64,000 bases of DNA, from the NCBI RefSeq assembly GCF_003790525.1, contig NZ_CP033635.1; one strand, 5' to 3'. Positions 2,211-39,228 of the stretch are shown one piece after another. Both the position numbers and the translations under genes were made by a program. This stretch comes from Escherichia coli. Its GTDB lineage: Bacteria > Pseudomonadota > Gammaproteobacteria > Enterobacterales > Enterobacteriaceae. Under the pieces are notes generated by a model. That model had not been told where the DNA came from. It worked only from the letters and a program-made list of their open reading frames with translations, and ran no database searches. Each line of letters starts with the position of its first letter. The stretch's first letter is position 1.

Positions 2211-2660
2211 ATGAAGAAAGCAACACTTGTGATTGGCGTTATTGGCGCGGACTGCCATGCAGTAGGCAATAAAGTTCTGGACCGCGTTTTTAGCAACCAT
2301 GGCTTCAGAGTCATTAATCTGGGCGTAATGGTCAGCCAGGACGAATATATTGATGCGGCCATTGAAACTGGCGCTGACGCGATTGTCGTCTCCTCTATCT
2401 ATGGGCATGGCGATATCGACTGTCTGGGCATGCGCGAACGCTGCATCGAGCGTGGACTGGGGGACATCCTGCTCTATGTGGGCGGTAACCTGGTGGTCGG
2501 AAAACATGACTTCGCTGACGTGGAAACCAAATTCAAAGAGATGGGATTTGATCGCGTCTTTGCCCCAAGTCATGACTTAGAAGATGTTTGTCAGCTGATG
2601 GCCCACGATATCAACCAACGTCATGACGTTGATACTCGTATTCTTGAAGAGGCAATCTGA
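2211..2660 (+). CDS. glutamate mutase S (sigma) subunit, B12-binding component of methylaspartate mutase
   Basis: Translation from [21 protein letters not shown] matches the cobalamin-binding small subunit, including the DxHxxG motif (DCHAVG). Start chosen at the internal ATG preceded by AAGGA; the track ORF starts 21 codons earlier. Confidence 0.85.
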
Positions 2661-4048
2661 TGCAAATCGTCTCTGTCGATATTGGATCGACGTGGACCAA
2701 AGCAGCCCTCTTCGCCCGGGAGGGGGACGCGTTAACGTTGGTTAACCACGTACTGACCCCAACCACCACCCATCATCTGGCGAAGGGGTTTTTCTCCAGC
2801 CTGAACCTGGTGTTAAACGTAGATAATGCCCTCCCCCTGTTTAACAACGGTGAGGTTGCATTGAAGTATTCCTCCTCTGCCAAAGGTGGGCTGGCGGTTG
2901 CCGCAATGGGGTTGGTGCCTTCTATCACCCTGGAAACCGCGAAAGTAACCGCTCACTCTGCGGGGGCTAAAATTGCGCAATATTACTCCTACAAGCTGAA
3001 CCGCCGTGATATCCAGGCACTGGAAGAAACGCAGCCCGATATTCTCTTGTTCACCGGCGGCACCGACGGCGGAGAAGAAAGCTACGGCCTGAATAACGCC
3101 CGTGTGCTGGCAGAATCCAAACTCGACTGCGCCATTATTTATGCCGGAAACCGGGATATTCAGGACGAGGTGCAGGAGATCCTAGGGCATAAAGACCTGA
3201 CCATCGTCGACAACGTTCTGCCCGATCTTGACCATCCGAACCCTTTAGCTGCACGCCAGGCTATCTGCGACATATTCCTTAAACGCATCGTTAAAGGGAA
3301 AGGGCTGGATGTCGTTGTTGATAAAACAGGCGAAGAACCAATGCCGACACCGTGGACAGTCTTTGAACTGGTTAAGGCAATCAGTAATGTCGATCACAGC
3401 TGGAAAGAGTTCATGCTGATCGACATGGGTGGCGCAACCACCGATGTCTATTCCGCCTGTGCCAACACGCTCTCGCCCGACACCGTTTTACACGGCGTAC
3501 CGGAACCCTTCGTGAAACGGACGGTGGAAGGCGATCTGGGAATGCGCGTCTCGGCAATGGTGGTTGGTGAAAGTGCGAAAGAGTTAGTCAATGTGAATTT
3601 TGCTCAGCAACCCGCACAGCTGGACGCTTTTTATCATTACCTCCGTCATCTAGTCGCTCATCCCGACTACTTACCCGCGAATGCAGAAGAAAAATATTTC
3701 GATACCGTCCTGGCCGGACTGTGTGTGGGTTATGCCACCGAAAGACATGCGGGCACCAAAAAAGAGGTCTGCACCTGTGTCGGCAATGTCGATTTACAGA
3801 TGGGACGTGACCTGACAACCGTGCGTAAAGTCGTCGGAACCGGCGGATGGCTCTCGCGTGCCAGTCAGTTCGATATGCATCACTGGTTGAAATACCGCGA
3901 GTTAAACGACGACGGTAAACGCATTCTCTTACCGACCGAATTTGAATATTACCGCGATTCCCGGGGGCTATTACCACTGCTGGCAAACGTCGCCAGAGTC
4001 GATCCGCTGGCCGCCGCGCGCACCAGTATTCAATGCTTAACCCTATAA
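2660..4048 (+). CDS. glutamate mutase L component (MutL/GlmL-type accessory protein)
   Basis: 462-aa ORF whose ATG overlaps the upstream stop (TGATG), sitting between the S and E subunit genes as in clostridial glutamate mutase operons. Confidence 0.75.
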   Translation: MQIVSVDIGSTWTKAALFAREGDALTLVNHVLTPTTTHHLAKGFFSSLNLVLNVDNALPLFNNGEVALKYSSSAKGGLAVAAMGLVPSITLETAKVTAHSAGAKIAQYYSYKLNRRDIQALEETQPDILLFTGGTDGGEESYGLNNARVLAESKLDCAIIYAGNRDIQDEVQEILGHKDLTIVDNVLPDLDHPNPLAARQAICDIFLKRIVKGKGLDVVVDKTGEEPMPTPWTVFELVKAISNVDHSWKEFMLIDMGGATTDVYSACANTLSPDTVLHGVPEPFVKRTVEGDLGMRVSAMVVGESAKELVNVNFAQQPAQLDAFYHYLRHLVAHPDYLPANAEEKYFDTVLAGLCVGYATERHAGTKKEVCTCVGNVDLQMGRDLTTVRKVVGTGGWLSRASQFDMHHWLKYRELNDDGKRILLPTEFEYYRDSRGLLPLLANVARVDPLAAARTSIQCLTL

Positions 4049-4066: not shown

Positions 4067-5512
4067 ATGGAACTTCGAAATAAGAAATTAACCCATGACG
4101 AATTCATGACCGAGCGGCAACAGGTACTGAAAACCTGGGAAACCGGCAAGGATGTTGAAAACTTTGAAGATGGCGTTAAATACCAACAAACCATTCCTGA
4201 GCATAAACGCTTCTCTCTTGCCCTGCTGAAAGCAGACAAGGAAGGTAAAACTCTTAGCCAACCGCGCGCAGGCGTGGCGCTGATGGACGAACACATCGAA
4301 CTACTGAAAACACTACAAGAAGAATGCGATCTGCTGCCGAGCACCATCGACGCATATACCCGTCTGAATCGGTACGAAGAAGCGGCTGTAGGGATTAAAA
4401 AATCCATCGAAGCCGGAACCTCTAAACTGAACGGTTTACCGGTCGTTAACCACGGCGTCGCAGCTTGCCGTCGCCTCACCGAAACTTTGCAAAAACCGCT
4501 ACAGATCCGCCACGGCACGCCAGATGCGCGTCTGCTGGCTGAAATCTCGATGGCCAGCGGCTTTACCAGTTATGAAGGCGGCGGCATTTCCTACAATATT
4601 CCGTATGCCAAGCGCGTAACGCTGGAAAAATCGATCCGCGACTGGCAGTACTGCGACCGTTTAATGGGGATGTATGAAGAACACGGGATCCGCATCAACC
4701 GCGAACCGTTTGGCCCACTAACGGGTACCCTGATCCCGCCGTTTATCTCGCACTCTATCGCGATAATCGAAGGCTTGCTGGCGCTGGAACAGGGTGTGAA
4801 ATCTATCACCGTTGGTTATGGACAGGTCGGCAGCCTGACGCAGGATGTTGCGGCGATCCAGTCTCTGCGTGAACTTGCACACGAATATTTTCAGAGCTAT
4901 GGCTATACCGACTATGAATTAAGTACCGTGTTTCACCAGTGGATGGGCGGCTTTCCGGAAGACGAATCGAAAGCGTTCGCTATTATCTCCTGGGGCGCAG
5001 CCGTCGCGGGGATGTCTGGTGCCACCAAAGTCATCACCAAAAGTCCGCACGAAGCCTGGGGTATCCCGACTGCCGCTGCCAACATTCAGGGGCTGAAAGC
5101 CTCCCGCCAGATGCTCAACATGGTCAACGAGCAGAAATTCCCGCCGTGCCCTGCGGTTGAACTGGAAATTGAACTGATTAAGAGCGAGGTTCGCGCGGTA
5201 CTGAATAAAGTGTTCGAACTGGGTAATGGTGATATTGCGCGCGGTACGGTGCTGGCATTTGAAGCGGGCGTACTGGATGTGCCGTTTGCGCCAGCCGCCT
5301 GCAACGCGGGCAAAATTCTTCCGGTCCGTGACAACACCGGCGCGATACGCGTACTGGAAGCCGGAGCCGTTCCATTGCCAAAAGATATTCTCGACCTCCA
5401 CCACGATTACGTTGCGGAACGCGCACGCTTTGAAGGACGCCAACCGACATTCCAGATGGTTGTAGATGACATCAATGCTGTATCCCACAGTAAATTAATA
5501 GGAAGACCATAA
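4067..5512 (+). CDS. glutamate mutase E (epsilon) catalytic subunit
   Basis: 481-aa translation (MELRNKKLTHDEF ... FQMVVDDINAVSHSKLIGRP) colinear with clostridial GlmE/MutE across its full length. Confidence 0.9.
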   Translation: MELRNKKLTHDEFMTERQQVLKTWETGKDVENFEDGVKYQQTIPEHKRFSLALLKADKEGKTLSQPRAGVALMDEHIELLKTLQEECDLLPSTIDAYTRLNRYEEAAVGIKKSIEAGTSKLNGLPVVNHGVAACRRLTETLQKPLQIRHGTPDARLLAEISMASGFTSYEGGGISYNIPYAKRVTLEKSIRDWQYCDRLMGMYEEHGIRINREPFGPLTGTLIPPFISHSIAIIEGLLALEQGVKSITVGYGQVGSLTQDVAAIQSLRELAHEYFQSYGYTDYELSTVFHQWMGGFPEDESKAFAIISWGAAVAGMSGATKVITKSPHEAWGIPTAAANIQGLKASRQMLNMVNEQKFPPCPAVELEIELIKSEVRAVLNKVFELGNGDIARGTVLAFEAGVLDVPFAPAACNAGKILPVRDNTGAIRVLEAGAVPLPKDILDLHHDYVAERARFEGRQPTFQMVVDDINAVSHSKLIGRP

Positions 5513-6753
5513 TGAAAATAAAACAGGCTCTGTTCACCGCTGGCTACTCCTCATTCTATTTCGATGACCAGCAGGCGATAAAAAACGGAGCGGGTCATGA
5601 CGGCTTTTTTTATACCGGGGAGCCGGTAACACAGGGGTTTAACGCCGTTCGTCAGGCCGGGGAGTGCGTATCGGTACAGTTGATTCTGGAAAACGGCGCG
5701 GTCGCCGTAGGTGACTGTGCTGCCGTACAGTATTCCGGGGCAGGTGGTCGCGATCCACTGTTCCTCGCTGAGCACTTTATTCCGTTCCTCAACGACCATA
5801 TCAAGCCATTACTGGTAGGCCGCGATGTGGATGCTTTCCTGCCGAATGCCCGTTTCTTCGACAAATTGCGTATTGACGGCAACTTGCTGCATACCGCCGT
5901 GCGCTACGGATTATCACAGGCGCTGCTTGATGCTACCGCGCTGGCAACCGGCCGTCTGAAAACTGAAGTGGTCTGTGATGAATGGCAGTTGCCACGCGTG
6001 GCGGAATCCATTCCATTATTTGGTCAGAGCGGGGACGATCGATATATCGCCGTCGATAAGATGATCCTTAAGGGCATCGACGTGCTGCCCCATGCACTGA
6101 TTAATAACGTCGAAGAGAAACTGGGCTTTAAAGGTGAAAAACTGCGCGAATATGTCCGCTGGCTGTCGGATCGTATTCTGAGCAAGCGCACCAGCGCACG
6201 CTACCACCCTACCCTGCACATCGATGTATACGGCACTATCGGTCTGATCTTCGATATGGATCCGCTTCGCTGTGCGCAATACATCGCCAGCCTGGAAAAA
6301 GAAGCGCAAGGCCTGCCGCTCTACATTGAAGGGCCGGTCGATGCCGGTAACAAGCCCGATCAAATTCGCCTGCTGACCGCGATTACCAAAGAGCTGACGC
6401 GCCTCGGTTCCGGCGTGAAAATTGTGGCCGATGAATGGTGTAACACCTACCAGGATATTGTTGATTTCACTGATGCCGCCAGTTGCCACATGGTGCAAAT
6501 CAAAACCCCGGATCTGGGCAGTATTCACAACATCGTCGATGCAGTTCTTTATTGCAACAGCCACAGCATGGAAGCGTACCAGGGCGGCACCTGCAATGAA
6601 ACTGATGTCAGTGCCCGCACCTGTGTCCACGTCGCCCTTGCCGCTCGCCCCATGCGTATGCTGGTAAAACCAGGGATGGGCTTTGACGAAGGCCTCGATA
6701 TCGTCTTCAACGAAATGAATCGTACTATCGCGCTGTTGCAGGCTAAGGATTAA
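5512..6753 (+). CDS. 3-methylaspartate ammonia-lyase
   Basis: 413-aa translation colinear with clostridial methylaspartase (conserved blocks AVQYSGAGGRDPLF, HALINNVEEKLG, HMVQIKTPDLG, CNETD). Start overlaps the glmE stop. Confidence 0.92.
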   Translation: MKIKQALFTAGYSSFYFDDQQAIKNGAGHDGFFYTGEPVTQGFNAVRQAGECVSVQLILENGAVAVGDCAAVQYSGAGGRDPLFLAEHFIPFLNDHIKPLLVGRDVDAFLPNARFFDKLRIDGNLLHTAVRYGLSQALLDATALATGRLKTEVVCDEWQLPRVAESIPLFGQSGDDRYIAVDKMILKGIDVLPHALINNVEEKLGFKGEKLREYVRWLSDRILSKRTSARYHPTLHIDVYGTIGLIFDMDPLRCAQYIASLEKEAQGLPLYIEGPVDAGNKPDQIRLLTAITKELTRLGSGVKIVADEWCNTYQDIVDFTDAASCHMVQIKTPDLGSIHNIVDAVLYCNSHSMEAYQGGTCNETDVSARTCVHVALAARPMRMLVKPGMGFDEGLDIVFNEMNRTIALLQAKD

Positions 6754-6756
6754 CAA

Positions 6757-8127
6757 ATGGCTCGTTCTTTTAAAGTCTTATCGCCAACGGCAATCCTCGG
6801 GTATGGATTCCCGGAAGAGAGCTTCCGCAAAGCGATGGCAGAATCGCCCGATCTGATCGCCGTTGATGCAGGCTCTTCCGATCCTGGCCCCCACTACCTC
6901 GGGGCGGGCAAACCGTTTACCGATCGCGCAGGGGTCAAGCGTGATTTGCGCTATATGATCACCGCAGGCGTGCAAAATAATATACCGGTGGTGATCGGAA
7001 CGGCCGGCGGTTCTGGTGCCGCTCCACACCTGGAGTGGTGCCGAGAAATAATTCATGAGATTGCCCGGGAAGAGCAACTCGCGTTCTCGATGGCGCTGAT
7101 CCCGGCAGACGTTGACAAAGCCATCGTCCACCAGGCGCTGGATAACGGCAAAATCACGGCGCTGGATTTTGTCCCGCCGTTAACCCACGACGCGATTGAC
7201 GAAAGTACGTATATCGTCGCGCAAATGGGCATCGAACCCTTCCAGCGGGCGCTGAAAGAAGGCGCGCAAGTGGTGCTGGGCGGGCGCGCTTACGACCCGG
7301 CCTGCTTTGCTGCGCTCCCGATCATGCAAGGCTTTGATGAAGGTCTGGCGCTGCATTGTGGGAAAATCCTTGAATGCGCGGCAATCGCCGCAACGCCCGG
7401 CTCAGGCTCTGACTGTGCGATGGGCATCATTGATGACAACGGCTTTACGCTGAAGACATTTAATCCGAAGCGTAAATTTACCGAAACGTCAGCGGCTGCA
7501 CACACACTGTATGAGAAATCCGATCCCTACTTCCTGCCTGGACCTGGCGGCGTGTTGAACCTGAAAGGCTGCACATTTAAAGCGGTCAATGACGGCGAAG
7601 TGTACGTCAGCGGTTCTAAGCATGAAGAAACGCCGTATGCCCTGAAACTGGAAGGTGCGCGACGGGTGGGCTTCCGCTGTCTGACCATCGCAGGAACGCG
7701 CGACCCGATCATGATCGCCGGGATCGATAAAATCATCGATGAAGTCAAAACCAGCGTTTCACGTAACCTGTCGCTCGACGATGACAGCATTCGCATCAAT
7801 TTCCACCTGTACGGCAAAAACGGGGTGATGGGCGACCATGAACCGATGCAAACTGCCGGGCATGAGCTGGGGATTGTCCTTGATGTAGTTGCACCGACCC
7901 AGGAAATTGCCAATAGCGTTTGCTCGCTGGTGCGCTCTACCATGCTGCACTACGGCTATGAAAACCGCATCGCTACCGCAGGCAATCTGGCGTTCCCGTT
8001 CTCCCCTTCTGATATCCAGGGCGGGCCGGTATACGAATTTTCCATATATCACCTGATTGAAGCCAACGACGCTCTGCGTTTTGATTTCCATATTGAACAG
8101 GTGACGCCAGAAGGAGTTCAGGCATGA
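6757..8127 (+). CDS. uncharacterised 456-aa protein, possibly DUF1446/AtuA-like
   Basis: ORF begins 4 nt after the methylaspartase stop in the same operon. Family assignment is from memory and tentative; no catalytic motif recognised. Confidence 0.6.
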   Translation: MARSFKVLSPTAILGYGFPEESFRKAMAESPDLIAVDAGSSDPGPHYLGAGKPFTDRAGVKRDLRYMITAGVQNNIPVVIGTAGGSGAAPHLEWCREIIHEIAREEQLAFSMALIPADVDKAIVHQALDNGKITALDFVPPLTHDAIDESTYIVAQMGIEPFQRALKEGAQVVLGGRAYDPACFAALPIMQGFDEGLALHCGKILECAAIAATPGSGSDCAMGIIDDNGFTLKTFNPKRKFTETSAAAHTLYEKSDPYFLPGPGGVLNLKGCTFKAVNDGEVYVSGSKHEETPYALKLEGARRVGFRCLTIAGTRDPIMIAGIDKIIDEVKTSVSRNLSLDDDSIRINFHLYGKNGVMGDHEPMQTAGHELGIVLDVVAPTQEIANSVCSLVRSTMLHYGYENRIATAGNLAFPFSPSDIQGGPVYEFSIYHLIEANDALRFDFHIEQVTPEGVQA

Positions 8128-8441
8128 AACAGTCAATTGTCTCACTGGCGCAAGTCATTCGTTCGAAAAATGCCGGACCTTACGAACTGGTTTTAGATAT
8201 TTTATTTAAAACGAAAGAAAACTATGAGCGAGTTAAATCATCAGGGCAATTAACCCCAGAACTGATTGCGCGCTTATATCATGTTGAACCTGACTTTATT
8301 CACCGTATTGTCTGGTTTGATCCTTCTAACGCAGTAAAAATCGTCATGCCACGAGATATTATCTCCGGGAATGTAGGTGACAATGATGTCTATGGTGCAC
8401 AGCAACATGCACCTTTATTAAATATGAGTTTCGATTTGTAA
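8124..8441 (+). CDS. uncharacterised 105-aa protein, possibly DUF4387-like partner of the upstream ORF
   Basis: Start overlaps the upstream stop by 4 nt (ATGA). Family assignment tentative. Confidence 0.55.
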   Translation: MKQSIVSLAQVIRSKNAGPYELVLDILFKTKENYERVKSSGQLTPELIARLYHVEPDFIHRIVWFDPSNAVKIVMPRDIISGNVGDNDVYGAQQHAPLLNMSFDL

Positions 8442-8601
8442 AAATCCGAATACTTTTAGCCAACTGACATCCCGTCACTTATTGCAGTTCAACACTTCAG
8501 CTATTTGTAAGGTTGTAATAGCAGGTAGATGCCTGAATCTCTATTCAGGCTTCTACTTCTCCTGATTCTGATTTATCGCCGTGCACCTGATGGAGGAAAA
8601 A

Positions 8602-9882
8602 ATGAAGAAAATAAGTTTAACCACGATGATTCTTTTGGCGCTGGTACTTGGAATGATTATCGGCGTAGTGCTCAATAACACTGCTTCACCGGAAACCGCA
8701 AAACTCTATGCGCAAGAAATATCGATATTCACGACGATTTTCTTACGACTGATAAAAATGATTATCGCTCCGTTAGTGGTCTCTACCCTGGTGGTAGGTA
8801 TAGCTAAAATGGGAGATGCCAAAGCCCTTGGTCGTATTTTTTCTAAAACACTCTTTTTATTTATTTGCGCCTCATTGCTGTCAATCGCCTTAGGCTTGAT
8901 AACAGTAAATTTCTTCATGCCAGGCACAGGAATTAATTTTGTTGCACACGGAGCCGAAACCACCGGAGTGGTCGCGTCAGAACCCTTTACGCTAAAAGTA
9001 TTTATTTCGCATGCTTTCCCCACCAGCATTGTCGATGCCATGGCGCACAATGAAATTTTGCAAATCGTGGTGTTCTCAATTTTCCTCGGCTGTAGCCTGA
9101 CGGCGATTGGTGAGAAAGGCAGCGCCATCGTTCACGCCTTAGATTCGCTGGCACATGCCATGTTAAAGCTCACTGGCTACGTCATGCTCTTCGCTCCCCT
9201 GACCGTATTCGCCGCTATTTCAGCATTGATTGCTGAACGAGGACTGGCAGTTATGGTGAGCGCCGGGATCTTTATGGGTGAATTTTATTTCACCATGTTG
9301 TTACTTTGGGTGCTGCTTATCGGTCTGGCCATCGTTTATGTCGGCCCCTGCATCAGACGCCTGACCCGTGCCCTTTCGGAACCCGCCCTGCTGGCATTTA
9401 CCACATCCAGTTCTGAAGCGGCTTTTCCGGGAACGCTTGAAAAACTGGAGCAATTTGGCGTTTCCCCCAAAATTGCCAGCTTTGTCTTACCCATTGGCTA
9501 CTCATTTAATCTCGTTGGATCAATGGCCTACTGCTCCTTCGCCACAGTTTTCATCGCCCAGGCCTGCAATATCCATTTATCCATCGGTGAGCAAATCACC
9601 ATGCTGTTGATCCTGATGTTGACCTCGAAAGGAATGGCTGGCGTACCACGCGCCTCAATGGTGGTTATCGCCGCCACGCTCAACCAGTTCAATATTCCGG
9701 AAGCGGGGCTGATCTTGCTGATGGGCGTTGATCCGTTCCTTGATATGGGGCGTTCCGCGACAAACGTCATGAGCAACGCAATGGGCGCTGCGATGGTGAG
9801 TCGGTGGGAAGGCGAACATTTCGGCGAGGGCTGTCGGGGTAAAGCATTAAAACCCAATGAATCGAACGTTGCTCTGCCCTGA
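8602..9882 (+). CDS. dicarboxylate/amino acid:cation symporter (GltP/DctA family)
   Basis: Multi-pass hydrophobic protein with GltP-like blocks. Start set at the ATG (MKKISL) preceded by GGAGG; the track ORF begins at an upstream GTG. Confidence 0.8.
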   Translation: MKKISLTTMILLALVLGMIIGVVLNNTASPETAKLYAQEISIFTTIFLRLIKMIIAPLVVSTLVVGIAKMGDAKALGRIFSKTLFLFICASLLSIALGLITVNFFMPGTGINFVAHGAETTGVVASEPFTLKVFISHAFPTSIVDAMAHNEILQIVVFSIFLGCSLTAIGEKGSAIVHALDSLAHAMLKLTGYVMLFAPLTVFAAISALIAERGLAVMVSAGIFMGEFYFTMLLLWVLLIGLAIVYVGPCIRRLTRALSEPALLAFTTSSSEAAFPGTLEKLEQFGVSPKIASFVLPIGYSFNLVGSMAYCSFATVFIAQACNIHLSIGEQITMLLILMLTSKGMAGVPRASMVVIAATLNQFNIPEAGLILLMGVDPFLDMGRSATNVMSNAMGAAMVSRWEGEHFGEGCRGKALKPNESNVALP

Positions 9883-9989
9883 GGGGGATCTTAAGCAATC
9901 AGAAGCCAATGACTACGCATTTTTATAAGCCGGATCATGAAGTTAGACGGCAATTAAGTAAAACTAACGTTTAAGGTGAAAAGTGAAAT

Positions 9990-11642
9990 ATGTCCAAACC
10001 ATTTATCTGGCAAGAACCGTTTCTACAAAATAAAGACGGTACAGAATATACATTAATTAGCGATCAACATATTACAGTAACGGAATTAGACGGCGAAGAA
10101 GTGATAAAAATCGCTCCTGAAGCATTAACGCTGCTTGCCCGGCAGGCATTTTATGAAGCCTCTTTTTTCTTACGTTCCGCTCATTTGCAACAGGTCGCCA
10201 GCATTCTTAACGATCCGCACGCCAGTAGTAATGATAAATACGTTGCGTTGCAGTTATTACGTAATGCTGAAGTCTCAGCAAAAGGGGTATTACCCAACTG
10301 TCAGGATACCGGCACCGCAACTATTGTTGCCAGTAAAGGGCAACAGATATGGACCGGAGGTAACGACGCTGAAGCCTTAAGCAAAGGCATTTACACCACT
10401 TTTCAGGAAAATAATCTGCGCTTTTCACAAAATGCGCCACTGGATATGTTTACCGAAGTCAATACGCAAACCAATCTCCCGGCGCAGATTGATATCAGCG
10501 CCGTCGCTGGTGATGAGTACCATTTTCTCTGTATTAATAAAGGGGGCGGCTCTGCCAATAAAGCCGCGCTTTATCAGGAAACCAAATCCCTATTGCAACC
10601 AGAAAAACTGACCGCATTTTTAATCGAAAAAATGAAATCGCTGGGCACCGCTGCCTGCCCGCCTTACCACATCGCCTTTGTCGTCGGAGGGCTTTCAGCC
10701 GATCAAACCTTAAAAGTTGCCAAGCTGGCCTCAACGAAATATTACGACAATTTGCCCACCAGCGGAAACGAGCAAGGACAAGCATTCCGTGATATTGAGC
10801 TGGAAAAAGTATTGCTCGAGGCCAGTCAGCAATTTGGTATTGGTGCGCAATTTGGGGGTAAATATTTCGCTCATGATATTCGCGTCATTCGTCTGCCGCG
10901 TCACGGTGGCTCTTGCCCGATAGCTATGGCGCTCTCCTGTTCTGCGGATCGCAATATCAAAGCAAAAATTAACAAGCACGGTATCTGGCTGGAAAAACTC
11001 GAACACAATCCGGGGCAATATATTCCAGCCTCACTGCGGGAAGAAAATCACGCGCAACATGTACAGCTGGATCTAAACCGTCCGTTGCGTGACGTGATGC
11101 AGGATCTCGCCAGATTACCGGTAGGCACCCGCGTGTCGTTAAGTGGTCCCATCGTAGTGGCGCGCGATATCGCCCACGCCAAAATAAAAGCGCGGCTGGA
11201 TAGCGGCGAACCGATGCCGGATTACCTGAAGCATCATATTGTCTATTACGCTGGCCCGGCGAAAACACCGGAGAACATGGCCTGCGGTTCACTGGGTCCA
11301 ACCACGGGCGGTCGAATGGACGGTTATGTCGATACCTTCCAGGCGGCTGGCGGCAGTCTGGTGATGTTATCGAAAGGTAACCGCAGCCAGCAGGTCACCG
11401 ATGCCTGTCACAAACATGGCGGCTTCAATCTGGGGAGTATTGGCGGTGCAGCTGCGTTACTGGCGCAAGAATATGTCAAAAGTCTGCGTTGCCTGGAATA
11501 CCCGGAGCTGGGTATGGAAGCGGTGTGGATGATGGAAGTGGAAAATTTACCCGCATTCATCCTGGTAGATGATAAAGGCAATAATTTCTTTAGTCAGTTT
11601 GAGCAGCAACACCGCTGCGCCAGTTGCCCTGCGGGACATTAA
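9990..11642 (+). CDS. class I (Fe-S) fumarate hydratase paralog, FumA/FumB-like; candidate mesaconase
   Basis: 550-aa translation colinear with E. coli FumA (e.g. [35 protein letters not shown]). The mesaconase role is inferred from operon context only. Confidence 0.85.
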
Positions 11643-11651
11643 GGAAAATGA

Positions 11652-12254
11652 ATGGAAGCGCGAATTTCAACTGAACGGCATGTGCAGCGCCAGCAGAAAT
11701 TGAAGGAACAGGTCGATACGCGCGTCGCGGCGGCGATAGAGAAAAAAGGGATTTTGATTGTTTTCACCGGCAATGGCAAAGGGAAATCCACTGCCGCGTT
11801 TGGTACTGTGACGCGCGCGGTGGGTCATGGCAAAACGGTGGGGGTTGCGCAGTACATCAAGGGGCAATGGGACAACGGCGAATACAACCTTCTCCAGCCG
11901 CTGGGGGTTGAGTTTCATATTATGGGAACCGGTTTTACCTGGGAGACACAGAACCGGCAAGCGGATATCGACGCGGCGAAAGAGGTCTGGTCGGAAAGCA
12001 AACGGATGCTGGCTGACAAGCGTTACGACTTAGTGGTGCTTGATGAGCTGACCTATATGCTGGCTTACCATTATCTGGATACCGAAGAAGTGATCGCTTC
12101 TCTGCAAAACCGCCCGGCACAACAAAGTGTCATTGTCACCGGACGCGGTTGCCACAGTCAGATATTAAAAATGGCGGATACGGTCAGCGAAATCCGCCCC
12201 GTCAAACATGCTTTTGATAACGGCATTCAGGCCCAGCCGGGTATCGACTGGTAA
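11652..12254 (+). CDS. corrinoid adenosyltransferase paralog (BtuR/CobA family)
   Basis: 200-aa translation closely colinear with E. coli BtuR, including the P-loop-like block IVFTGNGKGKSTAAFG. Confidence 0.85.
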   Translation: MEARISTERHVQRQQKLKEQVDTRVAAAIEKKGILIVFTGNGKGKSTAAFGTVTRAVGHGKTVGVAQYIKGQWDNGEYNLLQPLGVEFHIMGTGFTWETQNRQADIDAAKEVWSESKRMLADKRYDLVVLDELTYMLAYHYLDTEEVIASLQNRPAQQSVIVTGRGCHSQILKMADTVSEIRPVKHAFDNGIQAQPGIDW

Positions 12255-12287
12255 TAACTGCGCCTGGCATCCCGCCAGGCGCAGGTT

Positions 12288-13193
12288 TTACATCTCCTGC
12301 GGTACGACCGATTTCGCCAGCAACCATTCACGAAATTGCTGCAAGTGCGGTGAGTCAGACTTCTCTTCCTGCCACGTCATAATAAAACGATTACCGGTAC
12401 GAATAGGCACATCACAGGGAATCACCATATCGCCACTATCCAAATCATGTTGAATAGCGAACCGTGGTAACAGCGCCACGCCGAGATTAGAGCGCACGGC
12501 GGCAATCAGCATTGAAAGCAAATCGAAACGTGGTCCGTTATTGACCAGCGGACTGCTAACGCCAGATAAAGCAAACCACTCTTCCCAGCCAGTAATACGG
12601 GTGCTTTGATGCAGAAGTGGTAACTCAGTAAGCAGTTCTGCCACTGACAGTTTTTGATCGGACATTGCAAGCAAACTGCCGCTGCATACCGGCAAAATCT
12701 CCTCATCAAAGAGATATTCTACTTCCGCCCAGGGCGCGCAAAAATTTTCGCGCATAATGACAGCATCGTACTCCCGATTAAGAAAATCGCCGTTATTAGC
12801 TAAAGAATGAATATTAACAATAATATCGGGATGTAACTTTGTGAATTCATGTAAATTTGGGATTAACCAGTGGGTACTAAACGTAGGATTCACGGCAAGT
12901 TCAATAACCTGAACCGTAGGCTGCCAGGTCATAATGGTATTGGTATCGCGTTCCAGCTTATTTAATGTTTCTTTTACTATCCCCAGGTAATACTTCCCTG
13001 CATCATTAAGAAAAATGCGTTTTTTAGAGTGTGAAAATAACGGAGTATGTAAAAATTCCTCCAGCGCACTTACTTGTCTGAATACTGCACTTTGGGTTAA
13101 CGCTAACTCCTCTGCCGCTCTGGTATAACTTTCATGACGTGCGACGACCTCAAAAGTCACCAGCAGTTCCGTTTTAGGTATTTTTCCTCGCAT
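12288..13193 (-). CDS. LysR-family transcriptional regulator
   Basis: 301-aa ORF with an N-terminal helix-turn-helix (TRAAEELALTQSAVFRQVSALEE) and a LysR substrate-binding domain. Convergent with the upstream operon. Confidence 0.85.
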   Translation of the reverse strand: MRGKIPKTELLVTFEVVARHESYTRAAEELALTQSAVFRQVSALEEFLHTPLFSHSKKRIFLNDAGKYYLGIVKETLNKLERDTNTIMTWQPTVQVIELAVNPTFSTHWLIPNLHEFTKLHPDIIVNIHSLANNGDFLNREYDAVIMRENFCAPWAEVEYLFDEEILPVCSGSLLAMSDQKLSVAELLTELPLLHQSTRITGWEEWFALSGVSSPLVNNGPRFDLLSMLIAAVRSNLGVALLPRFAIQHDLDSGDMVIPCDVPIRTGNRFIMTWQEEKSDSPHLQQFREWLLAKSVVPQEM

Positions 13194-13770
13194 AATGCCT
13201 TCCCTTAAAAATAGTTGAAACTATCAAAAAACCATTACTTATTGCTAAGTAATGGCAACCAAAGCAGCAATCAATATTTTATAAAAATCATGTTCGATAT
13301 TTATAACCTGGTAAGCCTGGCGTGACAATTGTCTTAATCAGATAATAATAATCCGAAAAGCACAGCACCTTTCGAATTATCAGGAATTACATTAAGTGAA
13401 AATTATTAAATTGATATCATTTATCATATCTGTGGATATTATGATAAACAATCAACATAGATTTTATTTTTGATTTATAGCATATCCCTCTAAGAATTTT
13501 TGCGATGCTTCAATATCCGGGGTAAAGACCCGATCCTGACTGACAAATGGCACGACTTGACGATAAGCGGTGAACATCGCTTTTGTTGATTTACTTAACG
13601 CTACGGTCAAACGCTGGGAAGCCAGTGCATCAGGTAACGATTCGAAATTCGCCGTCGTTCTTATTCGTGGCTTGCGGTCGGTCGCGGCAATCCACAGTGG
13701 CTGTGGTCATGCAGTCAAGCCTGCAGTCAGATTCCGACCGTGGTTAACGTTTAAGGCATAAAAAAGGCCA

Positions 13771-13858
13771 TCATATGATGGCCAACCATGTCGAAACCGA
13801 CAGCCCTTCGCCATTCCTGTAGAGGGAAGCGGCGAGGGCTATTTCTTATTACAGATAT
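13771..13858 (-). ncRNA. sdhX: sucD 3'-UTR small RNA (SdhX/RybD-type) ending in an intrinsic terminator
   Basis: Region immediately after the sucD stop on the minus strand ends in the perfect palindrome GGCCATCATATGATGGCC followed by a T-run. Identity as SdhX rests on position and recollection; 5' end approximate. Confidence 0.45.
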
Positions 13859-37179: not shown

Positions 37180-39228
37180 ATGAGTCGTAAACAACTGGCG
37201 CTATTCGAACCAACACTTGTCGTTCAGGCGCTGAAAGAAGCGGTGAAAAAATTAAACCCGCAGGCGCAATGGCGCAATCCGGTGATGTTTATCGTCTGGA
37301 TCGGCAGTCTGCTGACCACCTTTATTAGCATCGCAATGGCAAGCGGCGCGATGCCTGGCAATGCGCTGTTTAGCGCGGCAATTAGCGCATGGCTGTGGGT
37401 CACCGTACTGTTCGCTAATTTCGCCGAGGCGCTGGCTGAAGGCCGCAGTAAAGCGCAGGCCAACAGTCTGAAAGGTGTAAAAAAAACCGCCTTTGCCCGC
37501 AAGCTGCGTGAGCCGAAATATGGCGCTGCGGCGGACAAAGTACCTGCCGATCAACTGCGTAAAGGCGATATCGTACTGGTAGAAGCTGGCGATATTATCC
37601 CCTGCGATGGTGAAGTTATTGAAGGGGGGGCATCGGTCGATGAAAGCGCCATCACCGGGGAATCGGCACCGGTGATCCGTGAATCCGGCGGCGATTTTGC
37701 CTCCGTCACTGGCGGTACGCGTATTCTTTCTGACTGGCTGGTGATTGAGTGCAGCGTTAACCCCGGCGAGACATTTCTGGATCGGATGATCGCGATGGTG
37801 GAAGGCGCGCAGCGACGCAAAACGCCAAACGAGATTGCCCTGACCATTCTCCTGATTGCCCTGACTATCGTCTTTTTACTGGCAACCGCCACGCTGTGGC
37901 CGTTTTCCGCGTGGGGCGGTAATGCAGTCAGCGTAACGGTACTGGTGGCGCTGCTGGTCTGTCTGATCCCAACGACCATTGGCGGTCTGTTGTCAGCGAT
38001 CGGCGTCGCCGGGATGAGTCGGATGCTGGGCGCGAATGTGATTGCCACCAGCGGACGTGCAGTTGAAGCGGCAGGTGACGTTGACGTTCTGCTACTGGAT
38101 AAAACCGGCACCATCACACTTGGTAACCGTCAGGCGTCGGAGTTTATCCCTGCGCAGGGCGTGGATGAAAAAACGCTGGCTGACGCCGCACAACTGGCTT
38201 CGCTGGCTGATGAAACGCCGGAAGGCCGCAGTATTGTGATCCTCGCCAAGCAGCGTTTTAACCTGCGTGAGCGCGATGTGCAGTCGCTTCACGCCACCTT
38301 TGTACCGTTTACTGCGCAAAGCCGGATGAGCGGGATCAACATCGACAACCGCATGATCCGTAAAGGTTCTGTCGATGCCATTCGCCGCCATGTTGAGGCT
38401 AACGGCGGTCACTTCCCTGCCGACGTCGATCAAAAAGTCGATCAGGTTGCGCGTCAGGGAGCCACGCCGCTGGTGGTGGTGGAAGGTTCTCGTGTGCTGG
38501 GCGTTATTGCGCTGAAAGATATCGTCAAAGGCGGTATTAAAGAGCGCTTCGCCCAACTGCGCAAAATGGGCATTAAAACGGTGATGATTACCGGTGATAA
38601 CCGTCTGACTGCCGCCGCGATAGCTGCGGAAGCGGGTGTCGATGATTTTCTCGCCGAAGCGACACCGGAGGCCAAGCTGGCATTGATTCGTCAGTATCAG
38701 GCGGAAGGCCGTTTGGTGGCGATGACCGGCGACGGCACCAACGATGCTCCGGCGCTGGCGCAGGCAGATGTCGCGGTGGCGATGAACTCTGGTACTCAGG
38801 CGGCGAAAGAAGCGGGCAATATGGTGGATCTCGACTCCAACCCGACCAAGTTGATCGAGGTGGTACATATTGGCAAACAGATGCTGATGACCCGTGGCTC
38901 GCTGACCACCTTCAGCATTGCCAACGATGTGGCGAAATACTTCGCCATTATTCCGGCGGCGTTCGCGGCAACGTATCCGCAGTTAAATGCGCTGAACATC
39001 ATGCGCCTGCATTCGCCCGACTCCGCCATTCTCAGTGCGGTGATTTTCAACGCCTTGATTATCGTCTTTTTGATTCCCCTGGCGTTAAAAGGCGCGAGTT
39101 ATAAACCGCTTACCGCTTCTGCCATGTTGCGCCGTAACTTATGGATTTACGGTCTGGGTGGGCTGCTGGTGCCGTTTATTGGTATCAAAGTCATTGATTT
39201 ACTGCTAACCGTTTGCGGTCTGGTGTGA
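37180..39228 (+). CDS. kdpB: potassium-transporting P-type ATPase catalytic subunit B
   Basis: 682-aa translation with P-type ATPase motifs ([18 protein letters not shown]). Confidence 0.97.

Follow-up and report, generated by a model that had tools for sequence, protein, structure and literature searches.

The cmlA and cmlB genes of an Escherichia coli methylaspartate island very probably encode the two subunits of a citramalate lyase

The enterobacterial gene cluster encoding glutamate mutase (Glm) and methylaspartate ammonia-lyase (Mal) was drawn in 2015 by Kronen & Berg (PMC4682846), who showed that its FumD enzyme is a mesaconase/fumarase and drew attention to a DUF1446 gene lying downstream of mal. 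They also showed that citramalate is not cleaved by citrate lyase, isocitrate lyase or methylisocitrate lyase, and considered its fate to be unclear. Others have since solved crystal structures of a citramalate lyase and given it the name CmlAB (2025), and the enzyme has served as a tool (2026), so the assignment discussed here is already known. We describe the corresponding genes, cmlA and cmlB, in a stretch of 64,000 nucleotides of Escherichia coli DNA (contig NZ_CP033635.1 of assembly GCF_003790525.1; hereafter the window), which over the cmlA/cmlB region is 100% identical to strain SMS-3-5. From their sequences, the products of the two genes are predicted, with high confidence, to be the subunits of a heteromeric (S)-citramalate lyase whose reaction depends on neither coenzyme A (CoA) nor an acyl carrier protein (ACP).

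The two products matched the chains of the PDB entries 9EVF ("Citramalate lyase - ADP - pyruvate complex", released 2025-10-08) and 9ERQ ("Citramalate lyase - AMPPNP- citramalate complex", released 2025-10-22), which carry the depositor names "Citramalate lyase, subunit A (cmlA)" and "subunit B (cmlB)". The cmlA product was 92.1% identical to chain A (420/456; E 1.6e-292), with residues 1-456 aligned to 1-456, and the cmlB product was 84.6% identical to chain B (88/104; E 5.2e-57); both have the same three-dimensional fold as the solved chains. Chain A is in turn 100% identical to the cmlA product of a Klebsiella/Raoultella-clade genome (locus L002), in which the same ten-gene arrangement is found. 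With respect to the enzyme of this clade, the predicted E. coli pair carries 36 substitutions in CmlA and 16 in CmlB. An alignment of 33 CmlA sequences of the Cml clade (61-90% identity) contained 157 invariant columns; E. coli CmlA keeps all of them, and none of its 36 differences from the crystallised protein falls at these positions.

As for the reaction, a preprint (bioRxiv 10.64898/2026.01.16.699985) employed the cmlAB genes of Raoultella planticola (Berg lab) for the direct in vivo conversion of citramalate to pyruvate and acetate: growth of an E. coli acetyl-CoA auxotroph on mesaconate required a cmlAB plasmid, and label entered acetyl-CoA-derived leucine. Our literature search on CmlAB and citramalate lyase since 2023 turned up only this Erb-lab preprint using the enzyme. 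Judging by the depositor names, the ligands in the entry titles and the work with the Raoultella enzyme, we are largely confident that CmlAB converts citramalate to pyruvate and acetate.

When each species was represented by a single genome, at least 583 genomes were seen to encode a relative, and we examined the best 80 loci (57-92% identity), which came from Enterobacterales, Rhodocyclales, Riflebacteria, Aminicenantes, Spirochaetes, Firmicutes, Desulfobacterota, Planctomycetes and other groups. The cmlA and cmlB open reading frames (ORFs) are not chance, the pair being kept at this level of identity in 80 species genomes. Synteny counts were corrected for truncated contigs, with the loci having enough flank as denominators. 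The cmlB gene lay directly 3' of cmlA in 78 of 78 loci, the commonest junction being the same 4-nt overlap found in E. coli (26 loci), and mal was located directly upstream of cmlA on the same strand in 66 of 72; GlmS, GlmE and Mal were all present in 55 of 63. The co-occurrence with methylaspartate-pathway genes, which the initial annotation of the window had put forward as a check, was therefore strongly positive. Look-ups starting from Mal, in Paludibacterium and in a metagenome contig, revealed the same core of a vitamin B12-binding subunit, MutL/GlmL, GlmE, methylaspartate ammonia-lyase, AtuA and DUF4387; the listed Mal homologues were all at least 72% identical, and this reverse co-occurrence is limited to these two contexts. 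No homologue of CitC, CitD, CitE, CitF, CitX or CitG was found within 10 kb on either side of cmlAB in the 80 loci by tblastn with E. coli queries, a result that would fit an unrelated enzyme having taken the place of the ACP-dependent citramalate lyase of clostridia. Together, the identity to the crystallised CmlAB, its citramalate and pyruvate ligands, the cmlAB-dependent growth on mesaconate and the synteny support the role for which the pair had initially been named a candidate, namely the missing citramalate-cleaving step.

Stand-alone cmlAB loci were observed in Accumulibacter (L030), Shewanella (L061, L075 and L077) and Desulfospira (L063), with rpoC, malQ, hrpA, fadE and RND efflux genes as neighbours; no glm or mal gene was present within 10 kb of cmlAB at these five loci.

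Within E. coli, the 1.7-kb cmlAB pair was detected in 1,121 of 5,426 complete genomes and the 11-kb island that contains it in 1,117 (about 21%), in both cases at 95-100% identity and with each match covering at least 80% of the query. In these complete genomes cmlAB was never separated from the island.

The cmlA gene (6757..8127, plus strand) starts with ATG and encodes 456 aa, the large subunit of the AtuA/DUF1446 family, and cmlB (8124..8441, plus strand), also with an ATG start, encodes the small DUF4387 subunit of 105 aa; both ORFs had been recognised initially as following the methylaspartate ammonia-lyase gene, and both are present there. Three nucleotides, CAA, separate the mal stop codon TAA (6751-6753) from the cmlA ATG at 6757, and an AAGGA Shine-Dalgarno sequence can be read at 6745..6749 (plus strand), 7 nt before this ATG and within the last mal codons. 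The cmlA and cmlB genes overlap by 4 nt in an ATGA start/stop (8124-8127), and a GAAGGAG Shine-Dalgarno sequence lies within the 3' end of cmlA, at 8110..8116 on the plus strand. Of the junctions described in the initial annotation, the cmlA-cmlB overlap was borne out, but the "4-nt" mal-cmlA junction is a 3-nt spacer, with the start codon 4 nt after the last base of the stop. These close junctions and the strong Shine-Dalgarno sites of both genes imply that both genes are set up for coupled translation.

A Pfam profile search confirmed what had been a tentative placement of the two proteins in the DUF1446/AtuA-like and DUF4387 families. CmlB matched DUF4387 (PF14330) with an E value of 2.9e-39, and CmlA matched AtuA (PF07287, formerly DUF1446) with an E value of 7.1e-19, the match being partial (residues 63-394 of 456); AtuA was the sole Pfam match of CmlA, and no NCBIfam model matched either protein. 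The DUF4387 family comprises 1,162 representative clusters at 50% identity, most of them stand-alone proteins of about 105 aa. Some DUF4387 domains are C-terminal in longer chains, of about 600 aa, which share 37-40% identity with CmlA over their N-terminal 450 residues and for which both Pfam domains are recorded (for example P0346, of 621 aa, and P0377, of 608 aa). A profile of split and fused members matched 9erq_A at positions 5-460 and 9erq_B at positions 479-578. The fused relatives and the match of one profile to both chains therefore identify the E. coli pair as an AtuA architecture split over two genes. When the profiles were run on all PDB sequences, nothing matched beyond 9ERQ and 9EVF, which are the only structures for the whole AtuA/DUF4387 superfamily.

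A number of residues are invariant even in the distant fused members: Q156, E160, R177, D180, H200, K203, E206, C207, H249, Y252, E253 and N410 of CmlA, and R13, K15, D25, K72, R77, D88 and Q93 of CmlB, where R13 and K15 belong to an IRSKNAGP motif. In the AlphaFold2 (AF2) model, confidence was low at residues 41-54, within an invariant stretch rich in Gly and Pro, and this segment is possibly a mobile loop.

Other domain combinations were also observed in the family. In P0355 (1096 aa) a DUF4387 domain at 503-597 precedes a CoA-transferase domain of family III (CaiB/Frc-like) at 832-1026; in P0261 (534 aa) DUF4387 is fused to a TIGR03576 pyridoxal phosphate enzyme, and in P0247 (336 aa) to an isochorismatase/biuret-hydrolase-like domain. 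These sequences give hints that other branches of the family may act on CoA esters or in other contexts. A fungal contig (SDIL01000071.1, locus L084) carries a fused AtuA+DUF4387 gene whose product (608 aa) is 40% identical to CmlA, with an acetate kinase gene (PF00871) some 7 kb away; this proximity (genes at 1-1041 and 8001-10630) is a single eukaryotic case and may be due to chance.

The splitting of R2C(OH)-CH2-COO- into a ketone and acetate needs a carbanion stabilised beside a carboxylate, and the classical lyases use thioesters for this purpose, on an ACP in the CitDEF-type enzymes and on CoA in citramalyl-CoA lyase. CmlAB has two subunits and is accompanied by no CoA or ACP genes, and according to the entry titles the solved orthologue binds citramalate together with AMPPNP, and pyruvate together with ADP. 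Since the classical enzymes avoid the alpha-carbanion of acetate by means of a thioester, we think that the nucleotide most likely serves the chemistry and not regulation. We propose that ATP would phosphorylate the C4 carboxylate of citramalate to give citramalyl phosphate, and that this intermediate would break in a retro-aldol reaction into pyruvate and the acetyl phosphate enolate. ADP would then take back the phosphoryl group, so that no ATP is used on balance, or the group would depart as acetyl phosphate, from which acetate kinase would recover it. This acyl-phosphate mechanism, taken from the two entry titles alone, is tentative, and we would put its chances at somewhat less than even. 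The broader idea that CmlAB represents a mechanistically new class of C-C lyase, in which the carboxylate is activated by ATP in place of a thioester, a transient citramalyl phosphate is split into pyruvate and acetyl phosphate and the phosphoryl group is regained as ATP, with the same chemistry across the AtuA/DUF4387 proteins, including the fused bacterial proteins and the fungal ones of about 600 aa, appears to us more doubtful still. NCBIfam, Pfam and PDB profile searches detected no known nucleotide-binding family or fold in CmlA or CmlB. The depositors of 9ERQ and 9EVF have probably already addressed the mechanism.

The island around cmlAB is located between cydAB and sucABCD. On the plus strand it begins with glmS (2211..2660, with the RefSeq start, the mechanical ORF opening at 2148), encoding the B12-binding subunit S of methylaspartate (glutamate) mutase (NF002612, 253 bits against a cut-off of 110), followed by glmL (2660..4048), encoding the accessory/reactivating protein of the mutase (TIGR01319, 886 bits; NF040745, 511.6 bits; also named so by RefSeq), glmE (4067..5512), encoding mutase subunit E (TIGR01503, 865 bits), and mal (5512..6753; TIGR01502, 543.9 bits). 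These four scores are all well over the NCBIfam cut-offs. The six-gene core glmS-glmL-glmE-mal-cmlA-cmlB, which is conserved across phyla, is tightly packed, with gaps of at most 18 nt, and ends at cmlB. A spacer of 139 nt then separates cmlB from the transporter gene and contains a weak hairpin with a T-poor tail (8531..8550, plus strand, from a consensus scan), which is possibly a partial terminator between the core and the distal genes.

The distal genes on the plus strand start with a symporter gene of the GltP/DctA family of dicarboxylate/amino acid:cation symporters (8602..9882 with the RefSeq start, the ORF opening at GTG 8581). Its scores with NF002461 (314 bits) and NF008440 (304 bits) are both under the equivalog cut-offs; the product, presumed to take up glutamate, is called GltP in PMC4682846. 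Next are fumD (9990..11642), encoding the class I fumarase/mesaconase that forms (S)-citramalate from mesaconate (NF011921, 1284.7 bits; activity of the O157:H7 enzyme in PMC4682846), and cobO (11652..12254), encoding a cob(I)yrinic acid a,c-diamide/cobalamin adenosyltransferase that would supply adenosylcobalamin to the mutase (NF004637, 295.6 bits). Convergent with the operon, a LysR-family gene (12288..13193, minus strand) encodes the presumed regulator of the island (GcvA-like NF008352, 221 bits, under the cut-off), and a LysR gene beside the cluster is conserved in 21 enterobacterial and other loci. Between cobO and this gene the consensus scan revealed a strong GC-rich hairpin of 11 bp, 9 of them GC (12258..12284, plus strand), which is likely a bidirectional terminator. 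The glutamate mutase, methylaspartase and class I fumarase paralog read initially from the sequence were all recovered with NCBIfam and RefSeq, and the conversion of mesaconate to citramalate suggested for the fumarase paralog had already been demonstrated for FumD (PMC4682846). RefSeq annotates the same genes in E. coli SMS-3-5.

Taken as a pathway, the GltP-like symporter would import glutamate, GlmSE, with GlmL and CobO for the B12 cofactor, would convert it to 3-methylaspartate, Mal would produce mesaconate from the latter, and FumD would add water to give (S)-citramalate; cleavage of (S)-citramalate to pyruvate and acetate by CmlAB would complete the methylaspartate route of the island. 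With CmlAB, the 11-kb island would thus hold by itself all of a B12-dependent pathway that leads from glutamate to pyruvate and acetate; it is present in about 21% of the complete E. coli genomes and in many anaerobes from gut and sediment.

The left edge of the island, between cydA and glmS, contains two plus-strand ORFs of low GC content (34-39%), at 217-1161 (314 aa) and 1242-1664 (140 aa), which had no Pfam, NCBIfam or PADLOC match and are "hypothetical protein" in RefSeq; they occur in 1,135 of the 5,426 E. coli genomes, with the same distribution as the island, and so travel with it. The sucD-cydA interval that the methylaspartate island fills here, and to which positions 13194-13858 belong, is occupied in E. 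coli K-12 by mngR-mngA-mngB. The window extends from nagD to sucD, and two leader peptides, speFL and uof, are annotated in it; a scan of positions 1-64000 at the Rfam gathering thresholds gave zero RNA families. In its right part, two gene remnants are annotated by RefSeq: a truncated type 1 fimbrial protein gene beside gltA (38038-38433 of locus L082; NC_010498.1 737489-737884) and a frameshifted winged-helix gene beside potE (16506-16639 of L082; NC_010498.1 715957-716090).

Several points weigh against the assignment of the pair as a citramalate lyase acting in this route. At 5 of the 72 loci cmlAB stands alone among housekeeping genes, so that the pair is not strictly tied to mal. The evidence for the activity consists of the names chosen by the depositors, the identity of the ligands in the entry titles and one preprint in which the enzyme served as a tool. 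With regard to the mechanism, the nucleotide could be an allosteric or structural ligand, and the same preprint (bioRxiv 10.64898/2026.01.16.699985) treats the interconversion of citramalate with pyruvate and acetate as reversible and inhibited by high acetate, with ATP not mentioned; the lack of an ATP cost in that work argues against net ATP hydrolysis and fits either a catalytic use of ATP or a purely regulatory nucleotide. Finally, the cluster of E. coli O157:H7 was reported to be not inducible, and neither methylaspartase activity nor growth on glutamate was observed (PMC4682846); its use in vivo in E. coli is therefore unproven. The possible silence of the island under laboratory conditions is the most serious of these caveats.

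This last point leads to the alternative that has most in its favour, namely that CmlAB is a genuine enzyme whose island in E. coli is a cryptic, silent remnant with no physiological contribution. In its favour, E. coli is not known to make B12 de novo, and the consensus scan found no strong or convincing sigma-70-like promoter upstream of glmS. However, all ten genes are intact in the window and in RefSeq, the island is kept at 95-100% identity in the 1,117 complete genomes that harbor it, and the clade-invariant residues are all retained, which argues for purifying selection and conditional use; the island also has its own transporter, adenosyltransferase and regulator. We therefore consider a cryptic remnant improbable.

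It is far less probable that the pair is an AtuA-type terpene or CoA-ester enzyme, unrelated to citramalate and merely hitch-hiking in the island. The Pfam match and the RefSeq name do point to the AtuA family, AtuA is listed as an HIHG-CoA:acetate lyase (HIHG, 3-hydroxy-3-isohexenylglutaryl) in PMC4847356, and some family members, such as P0355, are fused to a family III CoA-transferase; nevertheless, the Pfam match is partial and modest (E 7e-19), CmlA shares 37-40% identity with the fused AtuA-type proteins but 92% with the citramalate lyase that was crystallised, the window has no gene of the atu type (geranyl-CoA carboxylase, hydratase, acyl-CoA synthetase or dehydrogenase) beside the pair, and the synteny with mal holds across phyla. 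Equally hard to sustain is an accessory role, as a second methylaspartase, a methylaspartate/citramalate epimerase or an ATP-dependent chaperone or repair factor of glutamate mutase: homologues have long been named "3-methylaspartate ammonia-lyase" and adenine nucleotides, which are often found in chaperone-like factors, are present in the solved complexes, but CmlA matched neither TIGR01502, which only the upstream gene at 5512-6753 matched, nor any enolase-superfamily family, the old methylaspartase name was called unexplained by Kronen & Berg (PMC4682846), the reactivase role is already filled by GlmL, the crystal ligands citramalate and pyruvate are the substrate and a product of the lyase, and E. 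coli provided with only cmlAB grew on mesaconate, label reaching acetyl-CoA (bioRxiv 10.64898/2026.01.16.699985).

The citramalate lyase assignment has consequences for annotation. In RefSeq/PGAP, Pfam and NCBIfam (June 2026) the two proteins are labelled "acyclic terpene utilization AtuA family protein" and "DUF4387", and for the Cml clade the AtuA name in RefSeq is misleading. The wrong methylaspartase name persists on CmlA homologues of Salmonella (P0002), Riflebacteria (P0060) and Lentisphaerae (P0072), a misnaming that had been noted by Kronen & Berg in 2015 (PMC4682846). By orthology to CmlAB, thousands of genes could be renamed. If the route does operate, about one fifth of E. coli strains, O157:H7 included, would hold a complete and conditionally expressed pathway from glutamate to pyruvate and acetate. 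CmlAB is also of interest for synthetic, CoA-independent C5-dicarboxylate modules. The interest that remains lies in the role of the nucleotide, the generalisation to the AtuA/DUF4387 proteins and the conditions of expression in E. coli.

Three described systems end related routes or perform related chemistry. The classical citramalate lyase of Clostridium tetanomorphum (EC 4.1.3.22) has the same net reaction and the same place in the pathway as CmlAB, and its gene adjoins glm/mal in clostridia (PMC4682846). However, this enzyme is a CitDEF-like complex with an acyl carrier protein, which requires CitCXG for activation and works through an acetyl/citramalyl thioester attached to its prosthetic group. 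CmlAB consists of two subunits without an ACP, and an adenine nucleotide is bound in the solved orthologue. There is no sequence relationship between the two systems, and CmlA and CmlB gave no NCBIfam or Pfam match to the CitC, CitD, CitE, CitF, CitX or CitG families. The citrate lyase of E. coli itself is inactive on citramalate (PMC4682846). The (S)-citramalyl-CoA lyase (Ccl, CitE/HpcH-like), acting with a citramalate CoA-transferase, also ends C5-dicarboxylate routes, those of itaconate and mesaconate, in which the citramalyl skeleton is broken down to pyruvate and a two-carbon unit; in contrast to CmlAB, it needs CoA activation, yields acetyl-CoA, belongs to an unrelated fold and family and is absent from most enterobacteria (PMC4682846).

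The AtuA-type systems share with CmlAB both Pfam domains, PF07287 and PF14330, and the motifs GGRAYDP, H-x-GKI-x-EC and AAHTLYEK are common to CmlAB and the fused AtuA-type proteins. They differ in being a single chain of about 600 aa with a C-terminal DUF4387, where E. coli has two separate genes, in their identity to CmlA of only 37-40%, and in their setting: the substrate proposed for AtuA is a CoA ester and its gene belongs to the atu cluster, whereas the E. coli pair has only glmSLE, mal, the transporter gene, fumD, cobO and the LysR gene as neighbours. The kind of reaction proposed for AtuA would nonetheless be the same, with a tertiary beta-hydroxy acid, R2C(OH)-CH2-COO-, giving a ketone and free acetate (PMC4847356). 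By analogy, CmlAB bears on the lyase step of the Atu pathway, and, should the ATP-activated class prove true, it would provide a function for hundreds of "DUF" genes and for the step that releases acetate in acyclic terpene catabolism. The common bond logic of the AtuA and CmlAB reactions suggests that the release of acetate from tertiary beta-hydroxy acids is a family-wide activity.

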